Below, in pieces: positions 984 to 54,995 of a DNA stretch of 64,000 nucleotides. Origin of the DNA: Alphaproteobacteria bacterium (GTDB lineage: Bacteria > Pseudomonadota > Alphaproteobacteria > MPNO01); contig OZ242200.1 in assembly GCA_965205995.1 (NCBI GenBank), positions 19,233 to 83,232 on the forward strand, written 5' to 3'. Made by a program: the position numbers and the translations under genes. The number at the start of each line of letters is the position of its first letter. Within the stretch, counting starts at the first letter, position 1. The notes under the pieces are model-generated. The model was not told the DNA's origin and made no database searches. It worked only from the letters and a program-made list of their open reading frames with translations.

Positions 984-1649
984 CTAACCGGTGAAAGCGA
1001 AATCCGGCCCGCCCGCCGCGACCACGCGGCGGAGCGCGGCGAGCGCCCGGCGATAATCCAGCGCCAGCGCGGCCAGCGCCGGGAGTTCGCCCGGCCGCTT
1101 GCACAGCTCGACGAGAACCCGGGCGCGCCGCCTGCCGCGGGAGGCGAGCGCCGATGCCGGGACGCTTCGCCCCGCCGGGTCGGCGATCGCGCGGATGGCG
1201 ATCGCCGGCAGCCCGGCCCCGGCCACCGCGTGGCTTTCCATGTCGACGGCGGCGGCGCCCGAGGATGCGGCGAGCGCGGCCTTGGCGGCGGCGTCCGCGA
1301 CCGGCGCGTCGGCCCCGGCGATCGGCGCGCGGATGACGGGCAGCGCGGGCGCCAGCGCGGCGGCGAGCCGGTCCGCCCATTCGCCGGCGATGCCGAGCGG
1401 GCCGCCGTCCGGAGCGACGATGCCGGTGGCGATCACCACCGTCCCCGGAGGCAGCCCGGGATCTAGCCCGCCGGCGACGCCGAAGCTCACCAGCCCGGCG
1501 GCGCCCCACTCGACCAGGGACTCCGCGTGGGACCGCGCCCGTTCCGGCGAGGCGTTGCAGCAGAGGATCCGGATGTTGTCGCCGCCGCGCGCCGCCCGGG
1601 CTTCTCCAGGAAGGCCGGTGACGATCCCCAGACGCCGCGCCGGGCTCAC
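984..1649 (-). CDS. hpnG: hopanoid-associated phosphorylase HpnG (PNP/MTA-SAH nucleosidase family)
   Basis: C-terminal ~220 aa of the 409-aa ORF (VVSPARRLGIVTGLPGEARAARGGDNIRILCCNASPERA...AAVDMESHAVA) match nucleoside phosphorylase fold; likely GTG start overlapping shc TGA (GTGA); immediately downstream of shc as in hpn loci. N-terminal 190 aa of the ORF is antisense overlap with shc and rejected. Confidence 0.65.
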   Translation of the reverse strand: MSPARRLGIVTGLPGEARAARGGDNIRILCCNASPERARSHAESLVEWGAAGLVSFGVAGGLDPGLPPGTVVIATGIVAPDGGPLGIAGEWADRLAAALAPALPVIRAPIAGADAPVADAAAKAALAASSGAAAVDMESHAVAGAGLPAIAIRAIADPAGRSVPASALASRGRRRARVLVELCKRPGELPALAALALDYRRALAALRRVVAAGGPDFAFTG

Positions 1650-3661
1650 AACCCGAAGGGCGAGGTCTTGGCGGTGCCGCCGATGAGCCGACGATAGCGC
1701 GCCAGCGCGAGGATCGGGAAATAGGCGCTGTAGCCGTGATACCGGAGATAGAAGACGCGGGGAAAGCCGACCGCGTTGGTATGGTCGTCGCGCCAGGTGC
1801 AGCCGTCCCGCGGCGCGTCGAGCAGATATTCGATGCCGCGCCGCGCCGCCGCGCCGTCGACCTCGCCGGCGGCCATCAAGGCGAGCACCGCCCAGGACGT
1901 CTGGCTCGGTGTCGAGGAATGGGCCTCGGCGCGCCGGCCCGGCCAGTAGACCGCGCCGTTCTCGCCCCAGCCGCCGTCTGCGCGCTGCCGCCCTTCCAGC
2001 CAGCGGACCGCGCGGCGGATATGGGGCGCCGAGGGATCCTCCTCCAGCGCGTTGAGCGCGGTGAGAACGCACCAGGTGCCGTAGACATAGTTCATGCCCC
2101 AGCGCCCGTACCAGGAGCCGTCCTCCTCCTGTTCGCGGATCAGGAAGTCGATGCCGCGCGCCACGGCCGGGTCGTCGCGCGTTCGGCCGAGTTGCCCGAG
2201 CATGCCGATGCAACGCGCGGTCACGTCCGATGTCGGCGGGTCGAGCATCGCGCCGTGGTCGGCGAAGGGGATGCGGTTGAGATAGTCCTTGGTGTTGTCG
2301 ATGTCGAACGAGCCCCAGCCGCCATTGGAGCTCTGCATGCCGGCGACCCAGGTGGCGCCGCGGCGGATCGCTTCACCGGCGCCCTCCGGCCGGGCGCGGT
2401 CGAGCGCCATGACGACGACCGAGCTGTCGTCGGTGTCGGGGTAGTGCTCGTTGCGGTATTCGAACGCCCAGCCGCCGGGTTCGAGCCCGGGACGGTCGCG
2501 CGCCCAATCGCCCCTGGTATCGGTGATCTGTTCGTCCAGCAGCCAGGAAGAGGCGCGCCTGGCGGCGGTCTCGTTGTCCTCGCCGCCGGTCTCCATCAGG
2601 GCGTGCGCCGCGAGCGCGGTATCCCAGGTCGGCGACAGGCAGGGCTGGCAGATGGTCTCCCCGTTCTCCACCGCGAGCAGCCGCCGCACCGCGGCCAACG
2701 CATCGACGAACAGCGGATCGTCCCTGGCATGGCCCAGCGCGCGAAACGCCATCGCCGCATAGGCCATCGCCGGGAAGATGCCGCCGATCCCGTGGTCGCC
2801 GTTGCGCCGTTCGACGATGAACGCCAGCGCCCGGTCGAGGGCGCGCCGCTTCAGCGCGGCCGGGACGAGGGGAAGCGCGAGGCGGAGCGCCCGGTCGACC
2901 CCGAGGAAGAACCTGGCGAGCAGCCCCCTGGTGGACGGGACCAGCGCCGGGCAGTGCCGCCACGGGTCGGCCGCGAACAGCTCGCCGATGCCGGTCTCCC
3001 GCGGGTTGGCCGCGCGCGGCCGGCGGTCGAGCACCACCAGGAGGGGCACGATCGTCGTGCGCGACCAGTAGGACACCTTGTCGAGGTGGATCGGGAACCA
3101 GCGCGGCAGCAGCAGGATTTCCAGCGGCATCGCCGGCACCGCGCGCCACGGCAACTGCCCGAACAGCGCCAGCGCGATGCGGGTGAACACGTTGCACCGC
3201 GCGGCGCCGCCCCGTTCGAGGATCGCCGTCCGCGCCATTCTCATATGCGGCGCGTCCGGGTCGTCGCCGACGCATTTCAGGGCGAAATAGGCCTTTACGG
3301 ACGCGCTGACATCGGTCTCGCCGTCATGATAGAGCGGCCAGCCGCCGTCGGCGCCCTGGCGGCTGCGGATATAGGCGGCGATCCGGGCCTCCACCCCGTC
3401 GTCGATCTCGTCGATGAAATGCTCGAGCAGGACATATTCGGCGGGGATCGTCACATCGGCTTCGAGGGGGAATGCCCAGTGACCGTCGGCCTTCTGGCGG
3501 GCGCGCAAGGAAGCTGCGGCGTGTCCGACTTCCCGGTCGATACGCGCTGCCAGCCCCTTCGGACCGGGGTCGGTCGCCGCGGCCGGCGCCGGCCGCGCTG
3601 CCCCCGCGGCGACGTCTTCATGCGCGTATTCTTCCACCCGGCCCCCTTCCAAACGCCCCAC
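1646..3661 (-). CDS. shc: squalene-hopene cyclase
   Basis: 671 aa; QW-type repeats (GGWG, DGGW, DGSW), conserved DxDDTA-like region (DTDDSSVVVMALD), overall terpene cyclase architecture; GTG start. Confidence 0.9.
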   Translation of the reverse strand: MGRLEGGRVEEYAHEDVAAGAARPAPAAATDPGPKGLAARIDREVGHAAASLRARQKADGHWAFPLEADVTIPAEYVLLEHFIDEIDDGVEARIAAYIRSRQGADGGWPLYHDGETDVSASVKAYFALKCVGDDPDAPHMRMARTAILERGGAARCNVFTRIALALFGQLPWRAVPAMPLEILLLPRWFPIHLDKVSYWSRTTIVPLLVVLDRRPRAANPRETGIGELFAADPWRHCPALVPSTRGLLARFFLGVDRALRLALPLVPAALKRRALDRALAFIVERRNGDHGIGGIFPAMAYAAMAFRALGHARDDPLFVDALAAVRRLLAVENGETICQPCLSPTWDTALAAHALMETGGEDNETAARRASSWLLDEQITDTRGDWARDRPGLEPGGWAFEYRNEHYPDTDDSSVVVMALDRARPEGAGEAIRRGATWVAGMQSSNGGWGSFDIDNTKDYLNRIPFADHGAMLDPPTSDVTARCIGMLGQLGRTRDDPAVARGIDFLIREQEEDGSWYGRWGMNYVYGTWCVLTALNALEEDPSAPHIRRAVRWLEGRQRADGGWGENGAVYWPGRRAEAHSSTPSQTSWAVLALMAAGEVDGAAARRGIEYLLDAPRDGCTWRDDHTNAVGFPRVFYLRYHGYSAYFPILALARYRRLIGGTAKTSPFGL

Positions 3662-3738
3662 AACTTGCCCGGATCACGCAACCCATTGGTGCGTAACCCT
3701 AAATGTAGCACTGAGTCTTGTCCATGATCGCCGGCGAA

Positions 3739-4593
3739 TCAGCCCAACACCCCGTATCTGAGCGCGATCAGGATTTTCTCCGGCCGGGAGATGCGGACCG
3801 GGGTTTCGAGGTGCGACCAGCCCCTGCGTTCGAGCTCCCCGAGCACGCGGCGGTAGTTCATCATCATCGCCCGGGCGGGGCGAAGCGCCCGGCGGTCGCA
3901 GGCGCGGAACGCCGTCTCCGCCTCGGCGAAGCGGGCGCGCGCGATCCGGGCGAGCGCCTGGCAAGCCTCGGGGATCGCCGGATGGCGCAGGGTCTCGCGC
4001 GGCGTTGCGATCTCGATTGCCGCCTCGTCGAGCAATTCGCGCGGCAGGTAGAGCCGGTCCCGCTCCGCGTCCTCGATCAGGTCGCGGAGGATATTGGTGA
4101 GCTGCAGCGCCGTGCCGAGCGACAGCGCGAAGGACTGTTCCGCCGGCCCCGCGGCGCCGAAGGCGCGGATCGCGAGCAGCCCGACGGCGCCCGCCACCCG
4201 GTGGCAGTAAAGCTCCAGCTCCGCCAGAGCCGGCGCCCTGAGCCCGTCGCCCGCATCCATCCGCATCCCCTCGATCACCGCGAGGAAATCCTCGCGGCGC
4301 AGCCCGAACCGGCGCACCGGCTCGGCCAGGGCGCGGGCGGTGAGCTGCGCCGGGGCGCCGGCATAGAGCGCGTCGATCTCGTTGCGCCACAAATCGAGGC
4401 GGCGGCGCTTCTCGTCGGGCGCGTCCTCGCCGTCGGCGATATCGTCGACCTCGCGGCAGAACGCGTAGATCGCCAACATCGCCTCGCGGCGCCGCCGCGG
4501 CATCAGGCGCATCGCCCAGTAGAACGATGTGCCGGAGGCGGCGGTGACGGCGCGGACATGCGCCTTTGCCCGACCATCGGTTCCGGAATCCAT
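3739..4593 (-). CDS. hpnD: presqualene diphosphate synthase HpnD (squalene/phytoene synthase family)
   Basis: 284 aa; SFYWAMRLMP...AIYAFCREVDDIADG and second Asp-rich region LQLTNILRDLIEDAERDRLYLP typical of trans-isoprenyl diphosphate synthase head-to-head family, HpnD-like signature YAFCRxVDDIAD. Confidence 0.8.
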   Translation of the reverse strand: MDSGTDGRAKAHVRAVTAASGTSFYWAMRLMPRRRREAMLAIYAFCREVDDIADGEDAPDEKRRRLDLWRNEIDALYAGAPAQLTARALAEPVRRFGLRREDFLAVIEGMRMDAGDGLRAPALAELELYCHRVAGAVGLLAIRAFGAAGPAEQSFALSLGTALQLTNILRDLIEDAERDRLYLPRELLDEAAIEIATPRETLRHPAIPEACQALARIARARFAEAETAFRACDRRALRPARAMMMNYRRVLGELERRGWSHLETPVRISRPEKILIALRYGVLG

Positions 4594-10796: not shown

Positions 10797-10991
10797 TGCC
10801 CCCACCCGGCATTTCGACCGAAGTGCCGCGGGCACGGGCGGGTCCTGCGATCCGCCGATGACGGGTGCGGCTTCGTCTTGCTCGTCCTGCGGGAATAAAT
10901 TGAATTATAAACCGCCCTCAAGTAGAAGACATGCGCTACAGCGCAACCGTGACATGGCCGCATTCCGGTCCAATCGAAGGAGCAGGACAAG

Positions 10992-28675: not shown

Positions 28676-30397
28676 TCAGGCGAGCGCTTCGGCGAGCAGT
28701 TTGCGGACGTGGGCGTTGACGTCCCGGCTGCGGTGGCGCGCCTTCTTTCCGGTCGGGTGCAGCCCCTCGGCGTGGAAGAACTCGGGAAGCTCGTCGTCCT
28801 CCTCGGTGAAGCCGGCCCGGCGGTTGAACTCCCATTCGTCGCGCAGGGTCTCGTGGCCCAGCCTGCGGTAGAACGATTCGTCGAGCTCGGTGCCGTGCGC
28901 GTCGTTGAGCGCGTTGATCATGAAGTCGATATTCTCGTTGGTCACGGTGCGCCCGAACACGCAGAGGCCGAGCGAATCGGCGGTCGCGCACAGCGTCTGC
29001 ACGTCGAAGCTCGCCTCGGTCAGCTCCTCGGTCGTCTTGCCGTCGCAGACGAAGGCCGGGATGTTGCCCGTGGTGTGGTCGGCGCCCTGGGCGGTGACCA
29101 TCATCGAGATGCCGGTGACCTCGATCACCCGCGGGTCGTAGGCGCTGATGCCCTGGCTCTTGATGACCGGGACGCGGGCGACCTGGTAGTGCTCGCCCAC
29201 CCTGCGGGTTCCCTGGGCGAACATCCTGCCGCGCTCGTTGCCGTCGCGGATGTCCTGCAGCACGTCGGCCATGAAGGCGGGATCGCCGAACTCGCCGAGC
29301 CCGGCCTCCATCAGGACGCCGATGGTGGCGCCGATCTCGATCGAATCGACCCCGAGGTCGTTGGCGATGTGGTTGAGCCGGGCGACGTCGTCCGGATCCT
29401 CCAGCCCGCAATTGGTGCCCATCAGCCCGAGGGTCTCGTATTCGAGCGGCGAGACGATCTCCTCGCCCTCCGGCCCGACATAGATGTTGGAGCAGCGGAT
29501 CATGCAGCCCGGCATGCAGGCATGGGTCGGCTCGCCGCCGCGCGACAGGTTGCGCTCGCGGATATGCTCGCCGCCGAGCTTGAAGGTCTCCTTCTCCTTG
29601 TCGACCTGCTGGCCGGAGGAGAAGTTGCGGGTCGGCAGCCCGCCGATCGTGTTGGTGAAGTCGCCGACCATGGCGGTGCCGAGATTGCGCAGCGCGTTGA
29701 TCGCCGCGTCGGCGTCCAGCATCTTGTTGTAGTCGCGCACCGAGCCCATCAGCTTCTTGCGGTCGTGGAAGCTCGGCATCCGGTCGCGGTCGACGACGAT
29801 CGCCTTGACCTTCTTGCTGCCCATCACCGCGCCGACCCCGCCGCGCGCGGCGATGCGGACCGGCCGCCCCTCGGGATCGGTGAACGAGATGCCGGCGATC
29901 AGCCCCATATACTCGCCGACCGGGCCGCAGAGGCCGAGGCTCACCTTGTCGCCGTATTTTTCGTGGAGCAGCTTCGCCGCCTCGATATTGCCCTTGCCCA
30001 TATAGGGTCCGGCGTCCTCGAAGGTGATCTCGCCGCCCTTGTGGATGTAGATCACCGTCCAGTCGGCGGAGGCGCCGTAGAGGTTGAACCCGGCGATCTC
30101 GATCTGTCCCAGCGCGAAGGCGAAGGTGCCGCCCGAATTGGCCTCCTTGACGCCGCCGGTGAGCGGGCTCTTGCAGCCGATCGAGAGCCGGTTGGCGTTG
30201 GAGAAATTGGAGCCGGCGAACGGCCCGGCCGAGAAGATCAGCGGGTTCTCCGGCGACAGCGGGTCGACCTCGGCCGCGCCCTTCGCCAGCAGCGTCTTGG
30301 CGATCAAATGGCGGCCGGCGCGGACGATCGCCTCGCCATGCAGCTCCTCGGTCTCGATCGATCGGTCGTCGAGGTCGATGTGAAGATATTTTCTCAT
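28676..30397 (-). CDS. aldehyde:ferredoxin oxidoreductase (tungsten/molybdopterin AOR family)
   Basis: 573 aa; N-terminal MRKYLHIDLDDRSIETEEL AOR N-domain, [4Fe-4S] cysteines in HACMPGCMIRCSNIY, AOR domains 2/3. Confidence 0.8.
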   Translation of the reverse strand: MRKYLHIDLDDRSIETEELHGEAIVRAGRHLIAKTLLAKGAAEVDPLSPENPLIFSAGPFAGSNFSNANRLSIGCKSPLTGGVKEANSGGTFAFALGQIEIAGFNLYGASADWTVIYIHKGGEITFEDAGPYMGKGNIEAAKLLHEKYGDKVSLGLCGPVGEYMGLIAGISFTDPEGRPVRIAARGGVGAVMGSKKVKAIVVDRDRMPSFHDRKKLMGSVRDYNKMLDADAAINALRNLGTAMVGDFTNTIGGLPTRNFSSGQQVDKEKETFKLGGEHIRERNLSRGGEPTHACMPGCMIRCSNIYVGPEGEEIVSPLEYETLGLMGTNCGLEDPDDVARLNHIANDLGVDSIEIGATIGVLMEAGLGEFGDPAFMADVLQDIRDGNERGRMFAQGTRRVGEHYQVARVPVIKSQGISAYDPRVIEVTGISMMVTAQGADHTTGNIPAFVCDGKTTEELTEASFDVQTLCATADSLGLCVFGRTVTNENIDFMINALNDAHGTELDESFYRRLGHETLRDEWEFNRRAGFTEEDDELPEFFHAEGLHPTGKKARHRSRDVNAHVRKLLAEALA

Positions 30398-32357: not shown

Positions 32358-32746
<389 letters not shown>

Positions 32747-32768
32747 CCGGCGCACACCGAGGGACAAG

Positions 32769-33161
32769 ATGGCACGACAGACCGCAACGCGCGTCCGCCG
32801 CCGCGAGCGTAAGAACATCACCGCCGGCGTCGCGCATGTGAATGCCTCCTTCAACAACACCAAGATCACCATCACCGACGCCCAAGGCAACACGATCTCG
32901 TGGTCGTCGGCGGGATCGCAGGGGTTCAAGGGATCGCGCAAATCGACCCCCTACGCGGCGCAGATCGCGGGGGAAGATGCCGGGCGGAAGGCCATGGAGC
33001 ATGGCGTGAAGACGCTCGAAATCCAGGTCAAGGGGCCGGGCTCGGGACGCGAATCGGCGCTGCGCGCGCTTCAGGCGGTCGGCTTTTCGATCACCTCGAT
33101 TCGCGACGTGACGCCCATCCCGCATAACGGCTGCCGCCCGCGCAAGCGCCGCCGGGTCTGA
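32769..33161 (+). CDS. rpsK: 30S ribosomal protein S11
   Basis: 130 aa; [22 protein letters not shown]...[13 protein letters not shown] canonical S11. Confidence 0.95.
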
Positions 33162-33246
33162 ACCCAGCGCCAGGGCGCGGCAAGCCCGCGCCTCGAACGG
33201 CGGCGTTCTCGCCGCTGGATTTCAATCGCCGCCAAGGATCGAAAAA

Positions 33247-34269
33247 ATGTCGATTATTCACAGAAACTGGCAAGAGCTGATCAAGCCGAGCAAGCTCGAG
33301 ATCCTTCCCGGCACCGACCCGGCCCGGTTCGCGAGGATCGTCGCCGAGCCGCTGGAGCGCGGATTCGGCGTCACCCTCGGCAACGCGCTGAGGCGCGTGC
33401 TGCTGTCGTCGCTGCAGGGCGCGGCATGCACGGCGCTCCAGATCGACGGGGTGCTGCACGAATTCTCCTCCATCCCCGGGGTGCGGGAGGACGTCACCGA
33501 TATCGTGCTCAACGTCAAGAGCCTCGCGCTGCGCATGCATGGCGACGGGCCGAAGCGCATGTATCTCGAAGGCACCGGACCCGGCGAGATCACCGCCGGC
33601 ATGATCGAGGCCGGCCACGACATCGAAATCGTCGAACCCGACATCGCGATCTGCACCCTCGACGAGGGCGCCAAGATTTCCATGGAGCTCACCGTCGATG
33701 CGGGCAAGGGCTACGTCCCGGCGGTCCAGAACCGCGCCGCCGACGCCCCGATCGGACTGGTGCCCGTGGATGCCGTGTTCAGCCCGGTCCGCAAGGTGGC
33801 CTTCCAGGTGGAGAACACCCGGGTGGGCCAGATCACCGACTACGACAAGCTGTCGCTCGACATCGAGACCAACGGCGTGATCTCGCCGGAGGACGCCGTG
33901 GCGCTGGCGGCCCGCATCCTGCAGGACCAGCTCCAGCTCTTCATCAACTTCGAGGAGCCCTCGACCAGGGCCGAGGAGATCCTGCCCAGCGAGCCGTCCT
34001 TCAACAAGAACCTGCTGCGCAAGGTCGACGAGCTGGAACTCTCCGTGCGCTCCGCCAACTGCCTCAAGAACGACAACATCATCTATATCGGCGACCTCGT
34101 GCAGAAGAGCGAGCAGGAGATGCTGCGCACCCCCAATTTCGGGCGCAAATCCTTGAACGAGATCAAGGAGGTGCTCGCCCAGATGGGGCTCGAGCTCGGC
34201 ATGGAGATCCTCGAATGGCCGCCCGAGAACATCGAAGATCTCGCCCGGCGGCTGGACGAGCCCTATTAG
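33247..34269 (+). CDS. rpoA: DNA-directed RNA polymerase subunit alpha
   Basis: 340 aa; [22 protein letters not shown]-domain and C-terminal alphaCTD ([21 protein letters not shown]). Confidence 0.95.
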
Positions 34270-34299
34270 GACGGCCGGGTACAAGCGGGGAGACGGGCC

Positions 34300-34737
34300 A
34301 TGCGACACCGGCTGAAGGGCCGCAAGCTAAACCGGACCAGCACGCACCGGATCGCCATGTTCCGCAACATGGCGGCGGCTCTGGTGAAGCACGAGCAGAT
34401 CACCACAACCCTGCCCAAGGCGAAGGAGCTCCGGCCCATCGTCGAGCGGCTGATCACGCTGGGCAAGCGCGGCCCGTCCGACCTGCACGCCCGCCGCCAG
34501 GCGATCCGCAGGCTCGCCGGCGACGCCAAGCTGGCCGACAAGCTGTTCACCACGCTCGCCGAGCGCTATGCCGAGCGCAAGGGCGGTTACACGAGGGTGT
34601 TGAAGGCCGGCTTCCGCTACGGCGATTCCGCGCCGATGGCGGTGATCGAGCTGGTCGACCGCGACCCCGAGGCGAAGGGGCTCGATTCCGGGCCGGTGCC
34701 GGAACGCGACACGGTCCCGGAGGAAGCGGCCGCCTGA
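34300..34737 (+). CDS. rplQ: 50S ribosomal protein L17
   Basis: 145 aa; [46 protein letters not shown] canonical. Confidence 0.95.
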
Positions 34738-36262: not shown

Positions 36263-37570
36263 GTGAGCGCCGACAGCGACCGCGAACCCGGGCTGTTCGA
36301 GGCCGCCGCGCCGCGCCCGCTAGCCGACCGGCTGCGCCCGGCGAGGCTGGAGGACGTGCTGGGCCAGGACCACCTGCTGGGCGCGGACGGGCCGATCGGC
36401 CGCATGGTGGGCGAGGGCCGGCTGACCTCGATGGTCCTGTGGGGGCCGCCGGGCAGTGGCAAGACGACCATCGCCAGGTTGCTGGCGAACGCGACGGCGC
36501 ATCATTTCGAGCCATTGTCCGCGGTCTTTTCCGGGGTCGCCGATCTCAAGCGCGTGTTCGAGGCGGCGCGTGGGCGCCGCGTCGCCGGCCAGGGGACCAT
36601 CCTGTTCGTCGACGAGATCCACCGCTTCAACCGCGCCCAGCAGGACAGCTTCCTGCCCGTCGTCGAGGACGGGACGGTGATCCTGGTCGGCGCCACCACG
36701 GAAAACCCGTCCTTCGAGCTCAACGGCGCGCTGTTGTCGCGTTGCCAGGTCTTCGTGCTGCGCCGGCTCGACGACGCGGCGGTGGAAGCCCTGCTGCGCC
36801 GGGCCGAGGCGGAGACCGGCCGCCGCCTTCCTTTGGACGCGGCCGCGCGCGCGGCGCTGCTCGCGATGGCGGACGGCGACGGGCGCTATGTCCTCAACCT
36901 CGCCGAGGAGCTGCTGGCGCTGCCCGACGGCGAGGCTCTCGACGTCGCCGGCCTCTGCCAGGCGGTGCAGCGCCGCGCGCCGCTCTACGACAAGTCGCAG
37001 GACGGCCATTACAACCTGATCAGCGCGCTGCACAAATCGATCCGGGGATCGGACGCCGACGCCGCGCTCTACTGGCTCGCGCGCATGTTCCAGGGCGGCG
37101 AGGACCCGCGCTACGTGGCCCGCCGGCTGACCCGCCTGGCGGCCGAGGATGTCGGCCTGGCGGACCCGCAGGCGCTGGTTCAGGCGCTCGCCGCCTGGCA
37201 GACCTATGAGCGGCTCGGCTCTCCCGAAGGCGAGCTCGCGATCGCGCAATTGGCGGTCTATCTCGCCAACGCGCCCAAGTCGAACGCGCTCTACAAGGGC
37301 TTCAACGCGGCCTGGGCGGCGGCCGAGCGCACCGGGTCGCTGATTCCGCCGAGCCACATTCTCAACGCGCCGACGCGGCTGATGAAGGATCTGGGCTACG
37401 GCGCCGGCTATCGCTACGACCACAACGAGGAAGGCGGGTTCTCGGGCCAGAACTACTTCCCCGACGGCATGGAGCCGGAGGTTTTCTACCGGCCGACCGA
37501 CCGCGGCGCGGAGGCCGAAATCGCCGCCCGGATCGACGCCCTGCGGGCCCGGCGGAAGGGCGCGGGATGA
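36263..37570 (+). CDS. rarA: replication-associated recombination protein A (AAA+ ATPase RarA/MgsA)
   Basis: 435 aa; Walker A GPPGSGKTT, Walker B ILFVDEIHRFN, sensor and MgsA C-terminal domains; GTG start. Confidence 0.85.
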   Translation: MSADSDREPGLFEAAAPRPLADRLRPARLEDVLGQDHLLGADGPIGRMVGEGRLTSMVLWGPPGSGKTTIARLLANATAHHFEPLSAVFSGVADLKRVFEAARGRRVAGQGTILFVDEIHRFNRAQQDSFLPVVEDGTVILVGATTENPSFELNGALLSRCQVFVLRRLDDAAVEALLRRAEAETGRRLPLDAAARAALLAMADGDGRYVLNLAEELLALPDGEALDVAGLCQAVQRRAPLYDKSQDGHYNLISALHKSIRGSDADAALYWLARMFQGGEDPRYVARRLTRLAAEDVGLADPQALVQALAAWQTYERLGSPEGELAIAQLAVYLANAPKSNALYKGFNAAWAAAERTGSLIPPSHILNAPTRLMKDLGYGAGYRYDHNEEGGFSGQNYFPDGMEPEVFYRPTDRGAEAEIAARIDALRARRKGAG

Positions 37571-37947
37571 AGCTGCTGGTCGCCATCGCGCTCGGCGGCG
37601 CGACGGGCGCGCTCGCCCGCTATTTCGTCGCGCAGCAGATGACGCAGTGGCTCGGCGCGGGTTTCCCCTGGGGCACCTTCACGGTGAACCTCGTGGGCTC
37701 GTTCGTGCTCGGCCTGCTCGCCGAGACCTTCGCCCTCGCCGCCGACGCGAGCCCCGCCCTGCGCGGGTTCCTGATCGTCGGCCTGCTCGGCAGCTTCACC
37801 ACGTTTTCGACTTTTTCGCTCGACGTCGCGCTCCTGTTCCAGCGCGACCGCATCGACCTCGCCGCGCTCTATATCGCAGGCTCGGTGATCCTCGCCATCG
37901 CCGGGCTCTATGTTGGGCTCAAACTCGCGCGGCTGGCGCTCGGATGA
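37567..37947 (+). CDS. crcB: fluoride efflux channel CrcB/FluC
   Basis: 126 aa, 4 TM, GxxGxxTTFSTFS motif (GLLGSFTTFSTFS); 4-nt overlap with rarA. Confidence 0.85.
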   Translation: MKLLVAIALGGATGALARYFVAQQMTQWLGAGFPWGTFTVNLVGSFVLGLLAETFALAADASPALRGFLIVGLLGSFTTFSTFSLDVALLFQRDRIDLAALYIAGSVILAIAGLYVGLKLARLALG

Positions 37948-51728: not shown

Positions 51729-52205
51729 TCAAACCTCCCTCATCTCGCGGGCCGCGTCGGCCACCGCCTCGACGATCTTGTGATAGCCGGTGCAGCGGCA
51801 CAGATTGCCGGCGAGCCAGTAACGGATTTCGGTCTCGGTCGGGTCGGGGTTGTGCTCCAGCAGCGCGCGCGAGGCGACCAGCAGGCCCGGGGTGCAGATG
51901 CCGCATTGCAGGGCGGCGTGTTCGAGGAACTTGCGTTGCAACGGATGCAGCTCCTCGCCTTCCGCCATGCCCTCGATGGTCTCGACCCGCTTGCCCTCGA
52001 TTTCGACGCCGAGCATCAGGCAGGAGCACACGACCCGCCCGTCCACGGTGACCGAGCAGGCGCCGCAATCGCCGGTGCCGCAACCCTCCTTGGTGCCGGT
52101 CATCACGAGTTCGTCGCGCAGCACCGAAAGCAGCGTCTGGTCGCTCTCGCAGAGGAAATCGACCTCGTCGCCATTGATCGTCGTCGTTACGTGATAGCGC
52201 GCCAT
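51729..52205 (-). CDS. (2Fe-2S)-binding small subunit of Mo-hydroxylase (CoxS-like)
   Basis: 158 aa; CGTGDCGAC plant-type and CGICTPG...CRCTGY second cluster motifs. Confidence 0.9.
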   Translation of the reverse strand: MARYHVTTTINGDEVDFLCESDQTLLSVLRDELVMTGTKEGCGTGDCGACSVTVDGRVVCSCLMLGVEIEGKRVETIEGMAEGEELHPLQRKFLEHAALQCGICTPGLLVASRALLEHNPDPTETEIRYWLAGNLCRCTGYHKIVEAVADAAREMREV

Positions 52206-53065
52206 CAGCTTTGCTCCGCCCGTTCGAGCGCGATCCGGGCCGCCCGTTCGGCGAGCACGCCGGCGACCTCGATCCTGAATTCCTTGGTGCCCCGCTTGTC
52301 GTCGATCGGCCGGCAGGCCGCCGAGGCGGCCTTCGACAATTCGGCGAGCGCGGCATCGTCGACCCTTGAGCCGATCAGCGCGGCGGCGGCCTCGTCGACA
52401 AGCAGCGGCCGTTCCGCGACCGCGCCCAGCGAGACTCGCGCCGCGCTGCAGACCCCGGCCTCGTCGATCGTCAGGTTGACGCCGACGCCGACGACCGCGA
52501 TGTCCATCTCGGTCCTCGGCGTAAACCGCAGATAGGCGTCGCCCGAACGCGGCGACCGTTGCGGCAGCTCGAAGGAGATCACGATCTCGCCCGCGCCCAG
52601 CGAGGTCTTGCCCGGGCCTATGGCGATGTCCTCGACCGGCACCGACCGGCGTCCGCCGGGGCCGATCACCGAGGCCAGGGCGCCGGCGGCGATCAGCGCC
52701 GGCACGCTGTCCGCGGCCGGCGAGGCGTTGCACAGATTTCCGCCGAGCGTCGCCCGGCCGCGCACCTGGATCGAGCCGATCAGCTTGGCGCCGTCGACGA
52801 TCCCCGGCCACACCGCGTTGAAGCCCTCATGCTCCATGATCTCCATCCCGGTGACCGCGGCCCCGAGGCGGTAGCGGCCGCCCTCTTCGGCGATTTCCCG
52901 CATCTCGGCGATGTTCTTGATGTCGACCAGGACTTCGGGCTCGACCATGTCGGCGCGCATCTGGATCAGGAGATCCGTGCCGCCCGCCAGCACCTTGGCC
53001 GCGCCGCCGGCATCCGCCAGCAGCCTGGTCGCCGCGTCCAACGACGCCGGCGCTTCATAGCGCAT
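52205..53065 (-). CDS. FAD-binding medium subunit of Mo-hydroxylase (CoxM-like)
   Basis: 286 aa from MRYEAPASLDAATRLL; VLAGGTDLL FAD-binding motif, CO dehydrogenase flavoprotein C-domain; ATGA overlap with coxS. Confidence 0.85.
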   Translation of the reverse strand: MRYEAPASLDAATRLLADAGGAAKVLAGGTDLLIQMRADMVEPEVLVDIKNIAEMREIAEEGGRYRLGAAVTGMEIMEHEGFNAVWPGIVDGAKLIGSIQVRGRATLGGNLCNASPAADSVPALIAAGALASVIGPGGRRSVPVEDIAIGPGKTSLGAGEIVISFELPQRSPRSGDAYLRFTPRTEMDIAVVGVGVNLTIDEAGVCSAARVSLGAVAERPLLVDEAAAALIGSRVDDAALAELSKAASAACRPIDDKRGTKEFRIEVAGVLAERAARIALERAEQS

Positions 53066-53209
53066 GTGGTTTCGCCTCCCCTTCCGCCCGGTTCCGATGC
53101 GGGCCTGATTCGGTCCGCGCCAACTCTGGGCAGTCATATACCGGCCCGTGCGGGGCAAGGAAAGCGCCGCGGCAAACAGCCCTTCTGGAGAACGCGGCGC
53201 GGAAAGGAA

Positions 53210-53270
53210 TTACAATCTATGATTGTATTTAGTATTTCTGATGCTATCAATAATTGTTGTTCCGGTTGGG
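53210..53270. promoter_or_regulatory. AT-rich island (GC ~25%) with 15-bp perfect palindrome ACAATCTATGATTGT in coxM/DUF805 divergent intergenic region
   Basis: AATTACAATCTATGATTGTATTTAGTATTTCTGATGCTATCAATAATTGTTGTT read directly; strongly deviates from ~70% GC background. Confidence 0.4.
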
Positions 53271-53272
53271 AG

Positions 53273-53686
53273 ATGTCGCCGATGGAATCGTATACTGCGG
53301 TTGTCCTTGTCACCGTACTCATCGCCTTGGTTCTGTTTATCGGGGTTCCCGCGGTTGCGGTCTACCGCGAGAAAAGCGACCTGACGCTGGGCCGAAGAGA
53401 TTTCGTGCTCTGGGTCGTGCTGTACCTGATCGTGCTGCCGGTCGTTGCAAACGTCGTCGCGAAGATCATGCCCAGCCTGGCGGTCGACGGGGTGCTGGTC
53501 CTCGTTGGGCTCTGCATCGCCTATATTTTCTACCAGCGTGTGGTGCGCCGCGCACGGGACGCCGGCAAGGGCAAGCGCATCGCCTATGTCGGCGCGATTC
53601 CCCTCGCCAACCTGGTTGTCTTCGTCATTCTGATGGTGACGCGAAGCGCCCAGCCGGGCGACACCGCGCAAGCCGCCGAGGCCTGA
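53273..53686 (+). CDS. DUF805-like small inner membrane protein
   Basis: 137 aa; 3-4 TM helices with conserved RRxRDxGKG motif (RVVRRARDAGKGKR); alternative starts 53219 or 53282. Confidence 0.55.
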   Translation: MSPMESYTAVVLVTVLIALVLFIGVPAVAVYREKSDLTLGRRDFVLWVVLYLIVLPVVANVVAKIMPSLAVDGVLVLVGLCIAYIFYQRVVRRARDAGKGKRIAYVGAIPLANLVVFVILMVTRSAQPGDTAQAAEA

Positions 53687-53852
53687 CGACCCCGCCCCGG
53701 GGGTATCGAGCGCCCGCCCGGAAGGTGCGCCTCCCCGGGCGAAATGGCGAGGGGAGGTATGGGCGCGGCCGCCGCCATGATGACGGAGAGACAACGGGGC
53801 CGACGGTTCCGTCGAAACCGGATTTGCTCTAGGGTCCGCGGCCGGAGGAGCG

Positions 53853-54995
53853 ATGGATTTCGAGCTGTCCGACGAGCAGGCGCAGTTCCGTGAAGCCGCG
53901 CGGGCCTTCGCCGAGGGCGAGTTGGCGCCGCATGCGGCCGCGTGGGACGAGGACTCGATCTTTCCGGTGGATGCGCTCCGCGCCGCCGCCGCTCTCGGAT
54001 TTGCCGGACTCTATGTCGGCGAGGATGTCGGCGGCTCGGCGTGCCGGCGGCTCGACGCGGCGATCGTGCTGGAAGAGCTCGCGGCCGGCTGCACCTCGAC
54101 AGCGGCCTATATCTCGATCCACAACATGGCCGCCTGGATGATCGACGCCTATGGCGGCGACGATCGGCGCCGGGCGTGGCTGCCGAAGCTCAACACGATG
54201 GAGTGGTTCGCGAGCTACTGCCTCACCGAGCCCGGCAGCGGATCGGACGCCGCCTCGCTGACCGCAAGGGCGGTTCGTGACGGAAACGACTATGTGCTGA
54301 ACGGCGCCAAGGCGTTCATCTCGGGCGCCGGCAGTTCCGACCTCTATGTCACGATGGTGCGCACCGGCGGCGAGGGGCCCGAGGGCATTTCCTGCTTCGG
54401 CGTCGAGGCCGGCACGCCCGGCCTCTCCTTCGGCGAGCAGGAGAAGAAGCTCGGCTGGCATTCGCAGCCCACCGCGATGGTCTATTTCGACGATTGCCGG
54501 GTGCCCGCCTCCAACCGTATCGGCGCGGAGGGGGAGGGGTTCAGGATCGCCATGCAGGGGCTCGACGGCGGGCGCATCAATATCGGCGCGTGCTCGATCG
54601 GCGGCGCCCGGGCCTGCTACGAGGCGGCGCGAATCTATGTCGGGGAGCGGCGGCAGTTCGGCCGCGCGATCGCCGACTTCCAGGCAACCCAGTTCAAGCT
54701 GGCCGACATGGCGACCGCGCTCGAATCGGCCCGGCTGATGGTCTGGCGCGCGGCGGCGGCGCTCGATGCCGGCGAAGCGGAGGCGACGCTGCGCTGCGCG
54801 ATGGCCAAGCGGGTCGCCACCGATGCCGGGTTCGAGGTCTGCAACGAGGCCCTCCAACTGCATGGCGGTTACGGCTATCTTCGCGACCACGCGATCGAGC
54901 GCTACCTGCGCGATCTGCGCGTCCACCAGATCCTCGAAGGGACCAACGAGATCATGCGCGTCATCATCGCCCGGCGTCTCCTGGCTGAGAGCTGA
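53853..54995 (+). CDS. acyl-CoA dehydrogenase (isobutyryl-CoA dehydrogenase-like, valine catabolism)
   Basis: 380 aa; canonical ACAD domains, catalytic Glu near C-terminus (ILEGTNEIM), context with HIBCH and MmsB. Confidence 0.85.
   Translation: MDFELSDEQAQFREAARAFAEGELAPHAAAWDEDSIFPVDALRAAAALGFAGLYVGEDVGGSACRRLDAAIVLEELAAGCTSTAAYISIHNMAAWMIDAYGGDDRRRAWLPKLNTMEWFASYCLTEPGSGSDAASLTARAVRDGNDYVLNGAKAFISGAGSSDLYVTMVRTGGEGPEGISCFGVEAGTPGLSFGEQEKKLGWHSQPTAMVYFDDCRVPASNRIGAEGEGFRIAMQGLDGGRINIGACSIGGARACYEAARIYVGERRQFGRAIADFQATQFKLADMATALESARLMVWRAAAALDAGEAEATLRCAMAKRVATDAGFEVCNEALQLHGGYGYLRDHAIERYLRDLRVHQILEGTNEIMRVIIARRLLAES

Follow-up and report, generated by a model that had tools for sequence, protein, structure and literature searches.

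Several described systems resemble the divergent intergenic region between the coxM-like and DUF805 genes considered here. Bidirectional bacterial promoters, reportedly described by the Grainger laboratory in about 2021, are said to arise from the symmetry of AT-rich elements, with overlapping -10 elements and transcription starts about 18 bp apart. Operators of dimeric repressors of the TetR, GntR, MarR and similar types are inverted repeats of 6-7 bp with a short spacer that overlap a -10 hexamer. The sigma-70 promoters of GC-rich alphaproteobacteria combine an AT island in a GC-rich intergenic region with a TTG-type -35, a -10 starting with TA and a spacing of 16-18 bp, and the S. meliloti consensus is CTTGAC-N17-CTATAT (PMC2873474). 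Targets of the H-NS-like MucR/Ros proteins are AT-rich regions upstream of lineage-restricted, lower-GC and fast-changing accessory genes of alphaproteobacteria, in which composition is conserved; MucR1 recruitment goes up as GC content goes down and AT-rich accessory genes are silenced (PMC9410896).

Our locus shares these features and departs from each system in some respect. Compared with the alphaproteobacterial sigma-70 promoters its AT island is unusually extreme (24% GC over 55 bp) and carries promoter-like hexamer pairs on both strands, of which the rightward one is degenerate in this strain. As in bidirectional promoters, promoter-like hexamers of opposite strands share one short AT-rich segment between divergent genes, but here 5 bp separate the two TACAAT hexamers, and the predicted start of each comes before the other is reached, which would prevent their simultaneous use. 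Its palindrome matches the operators in repeat length, spacer and overlap with a -10 hexamer and differs from them in being unconserved at orthologous loci, within chance expectation and with no cognate regulator gene found nearby. Finally, it resembles MucR/Ros targets in its conserved composition upstream of a gene of this sort, but its tract is very short.

The region was analysed within a 64-kb stretch of DNA, hereafter the window, with a mean GC content of 68.9%. The AT-rich patch (53208..53262, no strand assigned) has about 24% GC and lies 20-75 bp upstream of the DUF805 start codon. The lowest-GC 55-mer of the window starts at 53203 (23.6% GC) and the next stands at 40%, an extreme outlier that agrees with the preliminary description of a patch of ~25% GC in a ~70% GC background. 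The next AT-rich spots, 33219-33273 and 10878-10932 (40-42% GC), directly precede rpoA and a gene for an outer-membrane beta-barrel protein, which fits AT islands marking promoters in this genome. Set against 40-42% at these other promoter regions, however, 24% GC means that being just a promoter is not a full explanation of the patch.

All alleles of the locus carry the patch at about -20 to -75 relative to the DUF805 ATG, with 24-36% GC, though base-for-base alignment fails in the distant ones. Its sole invariant triplet in an alignment of 11 sequences is TTG (53223..53225, plus strand), kept in all alleles and -35-like on the plus strand. No comparable AT patch was seen at coxM loci above about 64% GC among the matches listed from species-representative genomes. 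Neither the DUF805 protein nor the intergenic DNA had a match in a plasmid collection, which thus gave no sign of a plasmid-borne origin. Extra DUF805-like paralogues or insertions precede the acyl-CoA dehydrogenase gene in three alleles (L104 3509-4081, L109 3452-3961 and, uncalled, L110 at about 3790-4200), and no AT patch of their own lies before these paralogues downstream of DUF805. A further allele (L107) has a 55-aa ORF between DUF805 and the acyl-CoA dehydrogenase gene, a spacer that is an indel hotspot.

Pfam matches uphold the gene labels coxM and DUF805 under which the region had been described. The coxM-like gene (52205..53065, minus strand; PF00941, PF03450) encodes an FAD-binding subunit and is the first gene of a Mo-hydroxylase operon in which CoxS- and CoxL-like genes come after it; its exact product occurs on 11 public contigs. 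A CoxG-like gene is found at 62367-62819, 9 kb from this coxMSL-type operon. On the other side, a gene for a DUF805-family small membrane protein (53282..53686, plus strand) is recognised weakly by PF05656 (28.1 bits against a cut-off of 25.7) and is followed on the same strand by genes for isobutyryl-CoA dehydrogenase, an enoyl-CoA hydratase family protein and 3-hydroxyisobutyrate dehydrogenase.

The start of DUF805 is most likely the ATG at 53282 rather than 53273. The 134-aa product starting at 53282 is the form that gene callers predict, with exact matches on 21 public contigs, while an exact look-up of public contigs returned none for the 137-aa form, and a Shine-Dalgarno GGGAG (53268-72) precedes the likely ATG (53282-84; together 53268..53284, plus strand) as a GGGAG/GAGAGG motif that all alleles share. 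An N-terminal extension from the in-frame ATG within the palindrome (53219-53221) was considered as well; this ATG is lost in two of the compared alleles (L081 and L082) and is probably unused.

The DUF805 gene stands out from its surroundings, with 62% GC against 69-71% and a GC3 of 79% against 87-91%. A search of 5.8 billion proteins turned up no more than 38 homologues, and gene order is the same on all retrieved contigs carrying family members down to about 54% identity. A CoxM search of species-representative genomes gave a best match of 71% identity among the matches listed, and at none of those CoxM loci, again among the matches listed, was DUF805 a neighbour. The most distant homologue (39% identical; L111 707-1141 and L112 70-504) lies in DNA of 41% GC, where it adjoins a resolvase-type HTH protein and a phage-integrase-family gene, a mobile-element context.

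We propose, with a probability of roughly 60% and from sequence comparison, that the patch forms the core promoter zone between the divergent coxM and DUF805 genes and that it serves above all DUF805. The emphasis on DUF805 follows from the need of this gene for a promoter of its own and from the patch always being immediately upstream of it. Selection would hold AT-richness, with its easy strand opening and RNA polymerase contacts, and not the exact sequence, apart from one TTG and the TA-starting hexamers at promoter spacing. That transcription starts in the patch, and in which direction, we infer from the promoter-like elements described below. Together with the maintenance of the patch in place in all relatives, these elements support the divergent control region that the preliminary description had suggested.

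A consensus scan of 52900-53900 returned one sigma-70-like site, a 10/12 match on the minus strand. This putative promoter facing coxMSL (53222..53250, minus strand) reads TTGATA (53250..53245)-17-TACAAT (53227..53222), and its -10 coincides with the palindrome's right arm. A simple position weight matrix gives the pair 14.6 bits, more than the 11.5-12.2 bits that mark the 95th percentile for the shuffled patch. Chance promoter-like hexamers are common in AT-rich DNA (shuffle median about 8 bits). The TTGATA/TACAAT pair is kept in L100 and L103 and not in more distant alleles. Ten of the 11 sites that vary among strains fall outside the two hexamers, a pattern that would fit free variation at spacer and discriminator positions. 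As the best hexamer pair of this strain is the leftward one, the patch may drive transcription towards coxMSL as well.

The candidate rightward (DUF805) promoter position (53210..53238, plus strand) consists of TTACAA, here the left palindrome arm, and a -10-like TATTTC at 53233-38. At the left-arm position relatives have the -35-like hexamers TTGCAA, TTGATC or TTGCCC, and their -10-like hexamers (TATTGT, CATATT or TATATT) end 43-46 nt before the DUF805 ATG. An A-tract, GAAAAGG (GAAAAAGG), precedes the rightward -35-like hexamer in most alleles. The plus-strand promoter-like pair recurs in L100, L103, L104, L105 and L109 at 7.7-13 bits, near the shuffle range; plus-strand candidates of the window strain reach 5-8 bits, which does not exceed the shuffle median of 8.0. 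DUF805 may thus be poorly expressed in this strain, or read from elements outside the sigma-70 consensus.

The inverted repeat itself is real. At 53212-53226 lies ACAATCtatGATTGT, composed of ACAATC (53212-17), TAT (53218-20) and GATTGT (53221-26), and the perfect 6-3-6 repeat that had been reported is in fact a perfect 7-3-7 one, TACAATC-TAT-GATTGTA (53211..53227, no strand assigned), one base longer on each side and found only in the window's own sub-lineage. If one mismatch is allowed the arms reach 10 nt (AATTACAATC/GATTGTATTT). A second near-palindrome, CAATAATTG, is likewise present as described (53248-56) but is trivial in sequence this AT-rich. The repeat is no better than chance for the composition of the patch: among shuffles of the 55-bp patch with dinucleotides preserved, perfect arms of at least 6 nt with a loop of at most 8 arise in 18%, and the share is still about 5% for arms of 7 nt or more. 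The motif ACAATC-N3-GATTGT, two mismatches being allowed, has a single copy in the 64-kb window against 0.8 expected.

Comparison across strains and relatives tells how such a repeat could come about. We drew on about 20 metagenomic contigs with identical CoxM or DUF805, one of them a 6.9-Mb circle. The TACAAT/ATTGTA arms persist within the window's sub-lineage. Among strains whose DUF805 protein is 100% identical, L081 has the palindrome broken (ACAATCtaaAATTGT) and L082 has GCTATCataGATTGT in its place. It is also absent from L100 (DUF805 91% identical) and from all more distant alleles with the same gene order, whose best inverted repeats have 3-5 nt arms (P 0.4-1.0). Upstream of coxM at 80 distant loci no match with at most two mismatches was found, and scattered three-mismatch matches occur at seven. 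Conservation upstream of orthologous operons, the yardstick that the preliminary description had itself set, is therefore not borne out, the repeat being lost even where DUF805 is unchanged. Position 53212 is G in all outgroup alleles (TTGC...) and A in the window, so that the perfect palindrome rests on a derived G-to-A change.

In terms of the promoter zone that we favour, the leftward -10-like TACAAT (53227..53222) would stand five bases from the rightward -35-like hexamer and thereby give rise to the palindrome, and the change at 53212 would have turned the TTGCAA of relatives into TTACAA, finishing the inverted repeat. We regard the palindrome as probably a lineage-specific coincidence and not a conserved regulator site, judging by its distribution among alleles. 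One site nonetheless shows a stepwise history. The pair 53217/53221 (locus positions about 2936-2940 in L081, L088 and L089) is C:G in the window, a C/A mismatch in L081 and L089 and T:A in L088, where the palindrome is re-paired as 8-1-8 (ACAATTtaaAATTGT), with TACAATTTaAAATTGTA as the perfect repeat. This compensated pair may reflect chance, selection on symmetry or hairpin-templated mutation.

The operator proposed earlier would be bound at its arms ACAATC/GATTGT by a homodimer that controls coxMSL and/or DUF805; GCTATCAATAATTGT, at a distance of 31 bp, might be a second site. The overlap of the 7-3-7 repeat with promoter hexamers would suit it, as would a related 15-mer at 53243-57, some three helical turns off, that agrees with the palindrome 15-mer in 11/15 positions, the arms kept within the sub-lineage and the L088 compensation, which is expected under selection on a hairpin or symmetric site and could equally come from the other two causes named above. 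Its chance-level frequency, its loss in the L082, L100 and more distant alleles and its dependence on one derived base nevertheless make this reading very unlikely, and the element conserved at the locus is elsewhere, at 53131-53168. Among the window ORFs scanned with Pfam no transcription-factor or DNA-binding domain was found; this accords with the part of the proposal that placed the regulator's gene outside the window, while the dimeric-operator palindrome that would call for such a regulator is left unsupported. By-eye comparison with consensus sequences for the Pho box, the FixK/FNR box, LexA, CtrA and IHF produced no fit. Even less credible, and in our estimate scarcely worth entertaining, is a structured element in which the palindrome forms a hairpin in a 5' UTR or small RNA, or a cruciform. 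Folded as DNA, 53200-53270 reaches -6.4 kcal/mol, which is z = -2.1 relative to shuffled sequence, and its centroid structure includes the palindrome stem, but the stem is A-T rich, weak and unconserved, no relevant Rfam match appeared up to E = 10 nor any at gathering score across the whole window, and RNAalifold on the putative coxM leader gave a covariation term of +0.39, that is, no support. An ARAGORN search found nothing.

Two other proposals turn on composition and on position relative to coxMSL. The patch could be a nucleation site for a nucleoid-associated, AT-binding silencer (of the MucR/Ros kind if the organism is an alphaproteobacterium) that would repress DUF805 and spurious patch promoters, which is compatible with a promoter zone and which we hold to be possible if rather unlikely. 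What is conserved in the patch is composition and not sequence, its AT content far exceeds that of ordinary promoter regions in the window, DUF805 is lower in GC, lineage-restricted and exchanged by recombination, MucR1 prefers low GC (PMC9410896), and taxonomic hints are alphaproteobacterial; on the other hand, the AT-rich tract measures only 55 bp, and DUF805, with 62% GC, could be called AT-rich only by comparison. Alternatively, coxMSL could have a sigma-54 promoter with -24 GG and -12 GC (GGCGCTTTCCTTGC, 53168..53155), for which the patch, situated at about -60 to -120, would provide an enhancer or a bend of the IHF type. This sequence has GG-N10-GC with TTGC at the right spacing inside a conserved 16-nt stretch, the patch is at a typical upstream distance and its two related 15-mers are three helical turns apart. 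We nevertheless judge the idea highly improbable: by eye the site matches TGGCACG-N4-TTGCW at 8/12, and the -12 element, TCGC in three alleles, is TTGG in L110, its GC thus being GG. The IHF consensus is WATCAANNNNTTR, and by eye the ATCAA sites of the patch are without its N4-TTR spacing. The patch sequence is moreover unconserved, unlike an enhancer site, and the scan of window ORFs gave no Sigma54_activat domain. The same block can be read equally well, on the minus strand, as CTTTCC-N17-GTATAT, 9/12 of the S. meliloti sigma-70 consensus (PMC2873474).

This block is the candidate coxMSL promoter/operator (53131..53168, minus strand), a GC-rich stretch of 38 bp made up of the 18-mer CAGTCATATACCGGCCCG (53131-48) and GCAAGGAAAGCGCC. 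The 18-mer is invariant in every allele, while the flanks of the block have diverged to 55-67% identity. Accordingly conserved sequence is found here and not in the patch, and a sequence-specific control element of coxMSL, to go by the alignments, is more likely to be this block than the patch. A scan of JGI metagenomes for the 18-mer gave 12 matches, all in unrelated contexts and with no coxM, DUF805 or acd nearby; these are matches by chance and thus no evidence of a dispersed regulatory motif. We also considered an upstream ORF or CoxM extension from an ATG at 53141..53139, in frame with coxM; non-triplet indels lie downstream of it, the peptide is unconserved and the ATG is probably unused.

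Variation among close strains is concentrated in the patch. For haplotypes that are 99.5-99.97% identical over 6.4 kb, 11/55 patch sites vary against 34/1499 third codon positions (P about 4e-8), and without L082, which is apparently recombinant, 6/55 still do (P about 1e-3). Assembly errors are not the cause, since independent samples and short-read assemblies yield these haplotypes again. At greater distance, the window from about 53050 to 53600 is 55-84% identical in DNA to its counterpart in L105 (about 2770-3320 in L105 and L106), with the minimum at the patch, against 96-100% in the flanks. Synonymous divergence amounts to 0.50 for DUF805, 0.07 for coxM and 0.03 for acd. DUF805 proteins are 54-91% identical where CoxM and Acd are 86-98% identical, with a dN/dS of about 0.35-0.55. 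From these comparisons, the intergenic region and most of DUF805 behave as a hypervariable segment exchanged by recombination, into which a divergent allele would have been imported. A 104-aa DUF805 variant is found beside an identical CoxM in L092 (2470-2784, minus strand there); it departs from the window's gene about 60 bp into the coding sequence (window from about 53340) and belongs to the P0019 class, 64% identical.

A stronger version of this exchange takes the patch and DUF805 as a hypervariable cassette swapped between near-identical genomes, its promoter possibly altered by hairpin-templated changes and the whole under diversifying selection, for example by phage. It takes the quasi-palindromic promoter to mutate faster than synonymous sites and cites the L088 compensation of C:G to T:A; we consider it unlikely. 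If true, it would entail strain-to-strain differences in the expression of a rapidly diversifying small membrane protein. For the microdiversity of soil bacteria, the observation is that a small membrane-protein gene and its putative promoter diverge 7-15 times faster than their flanks at synonymous sites.

A striking palindrome in the AT island of a GC-rich genome can, on the promoter reading that we prefer, be a by-product of promoter hexamers and one point mutation, and a strain-level comparison suffices to expose an accidental palindrome of this kind. For sequence-specific control of the Mo-hydroxylase operon the place to look would be the invariant block at 53131-53168 and not the palindrome. 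The palindrome would have little significance beyond this locus, the conserved block and the hypervariable DUF805 cassette being the more informative features.

Elsewhere in the window, crcB (fluoride channel) occupies 37567-37947, with no fluoride riboswitch detected in the window at the Rfam gathering score. An rpsM-rpsK-rpoA-rplQ cluster lies at 32432-34737, and a gene of the aldehyde:ferredoxin oxidoreductase family at 28676-30397. Squalene-hopene cyclase and squalene synthase-like genes of hopanoid synthesis are found at 1646-4593.
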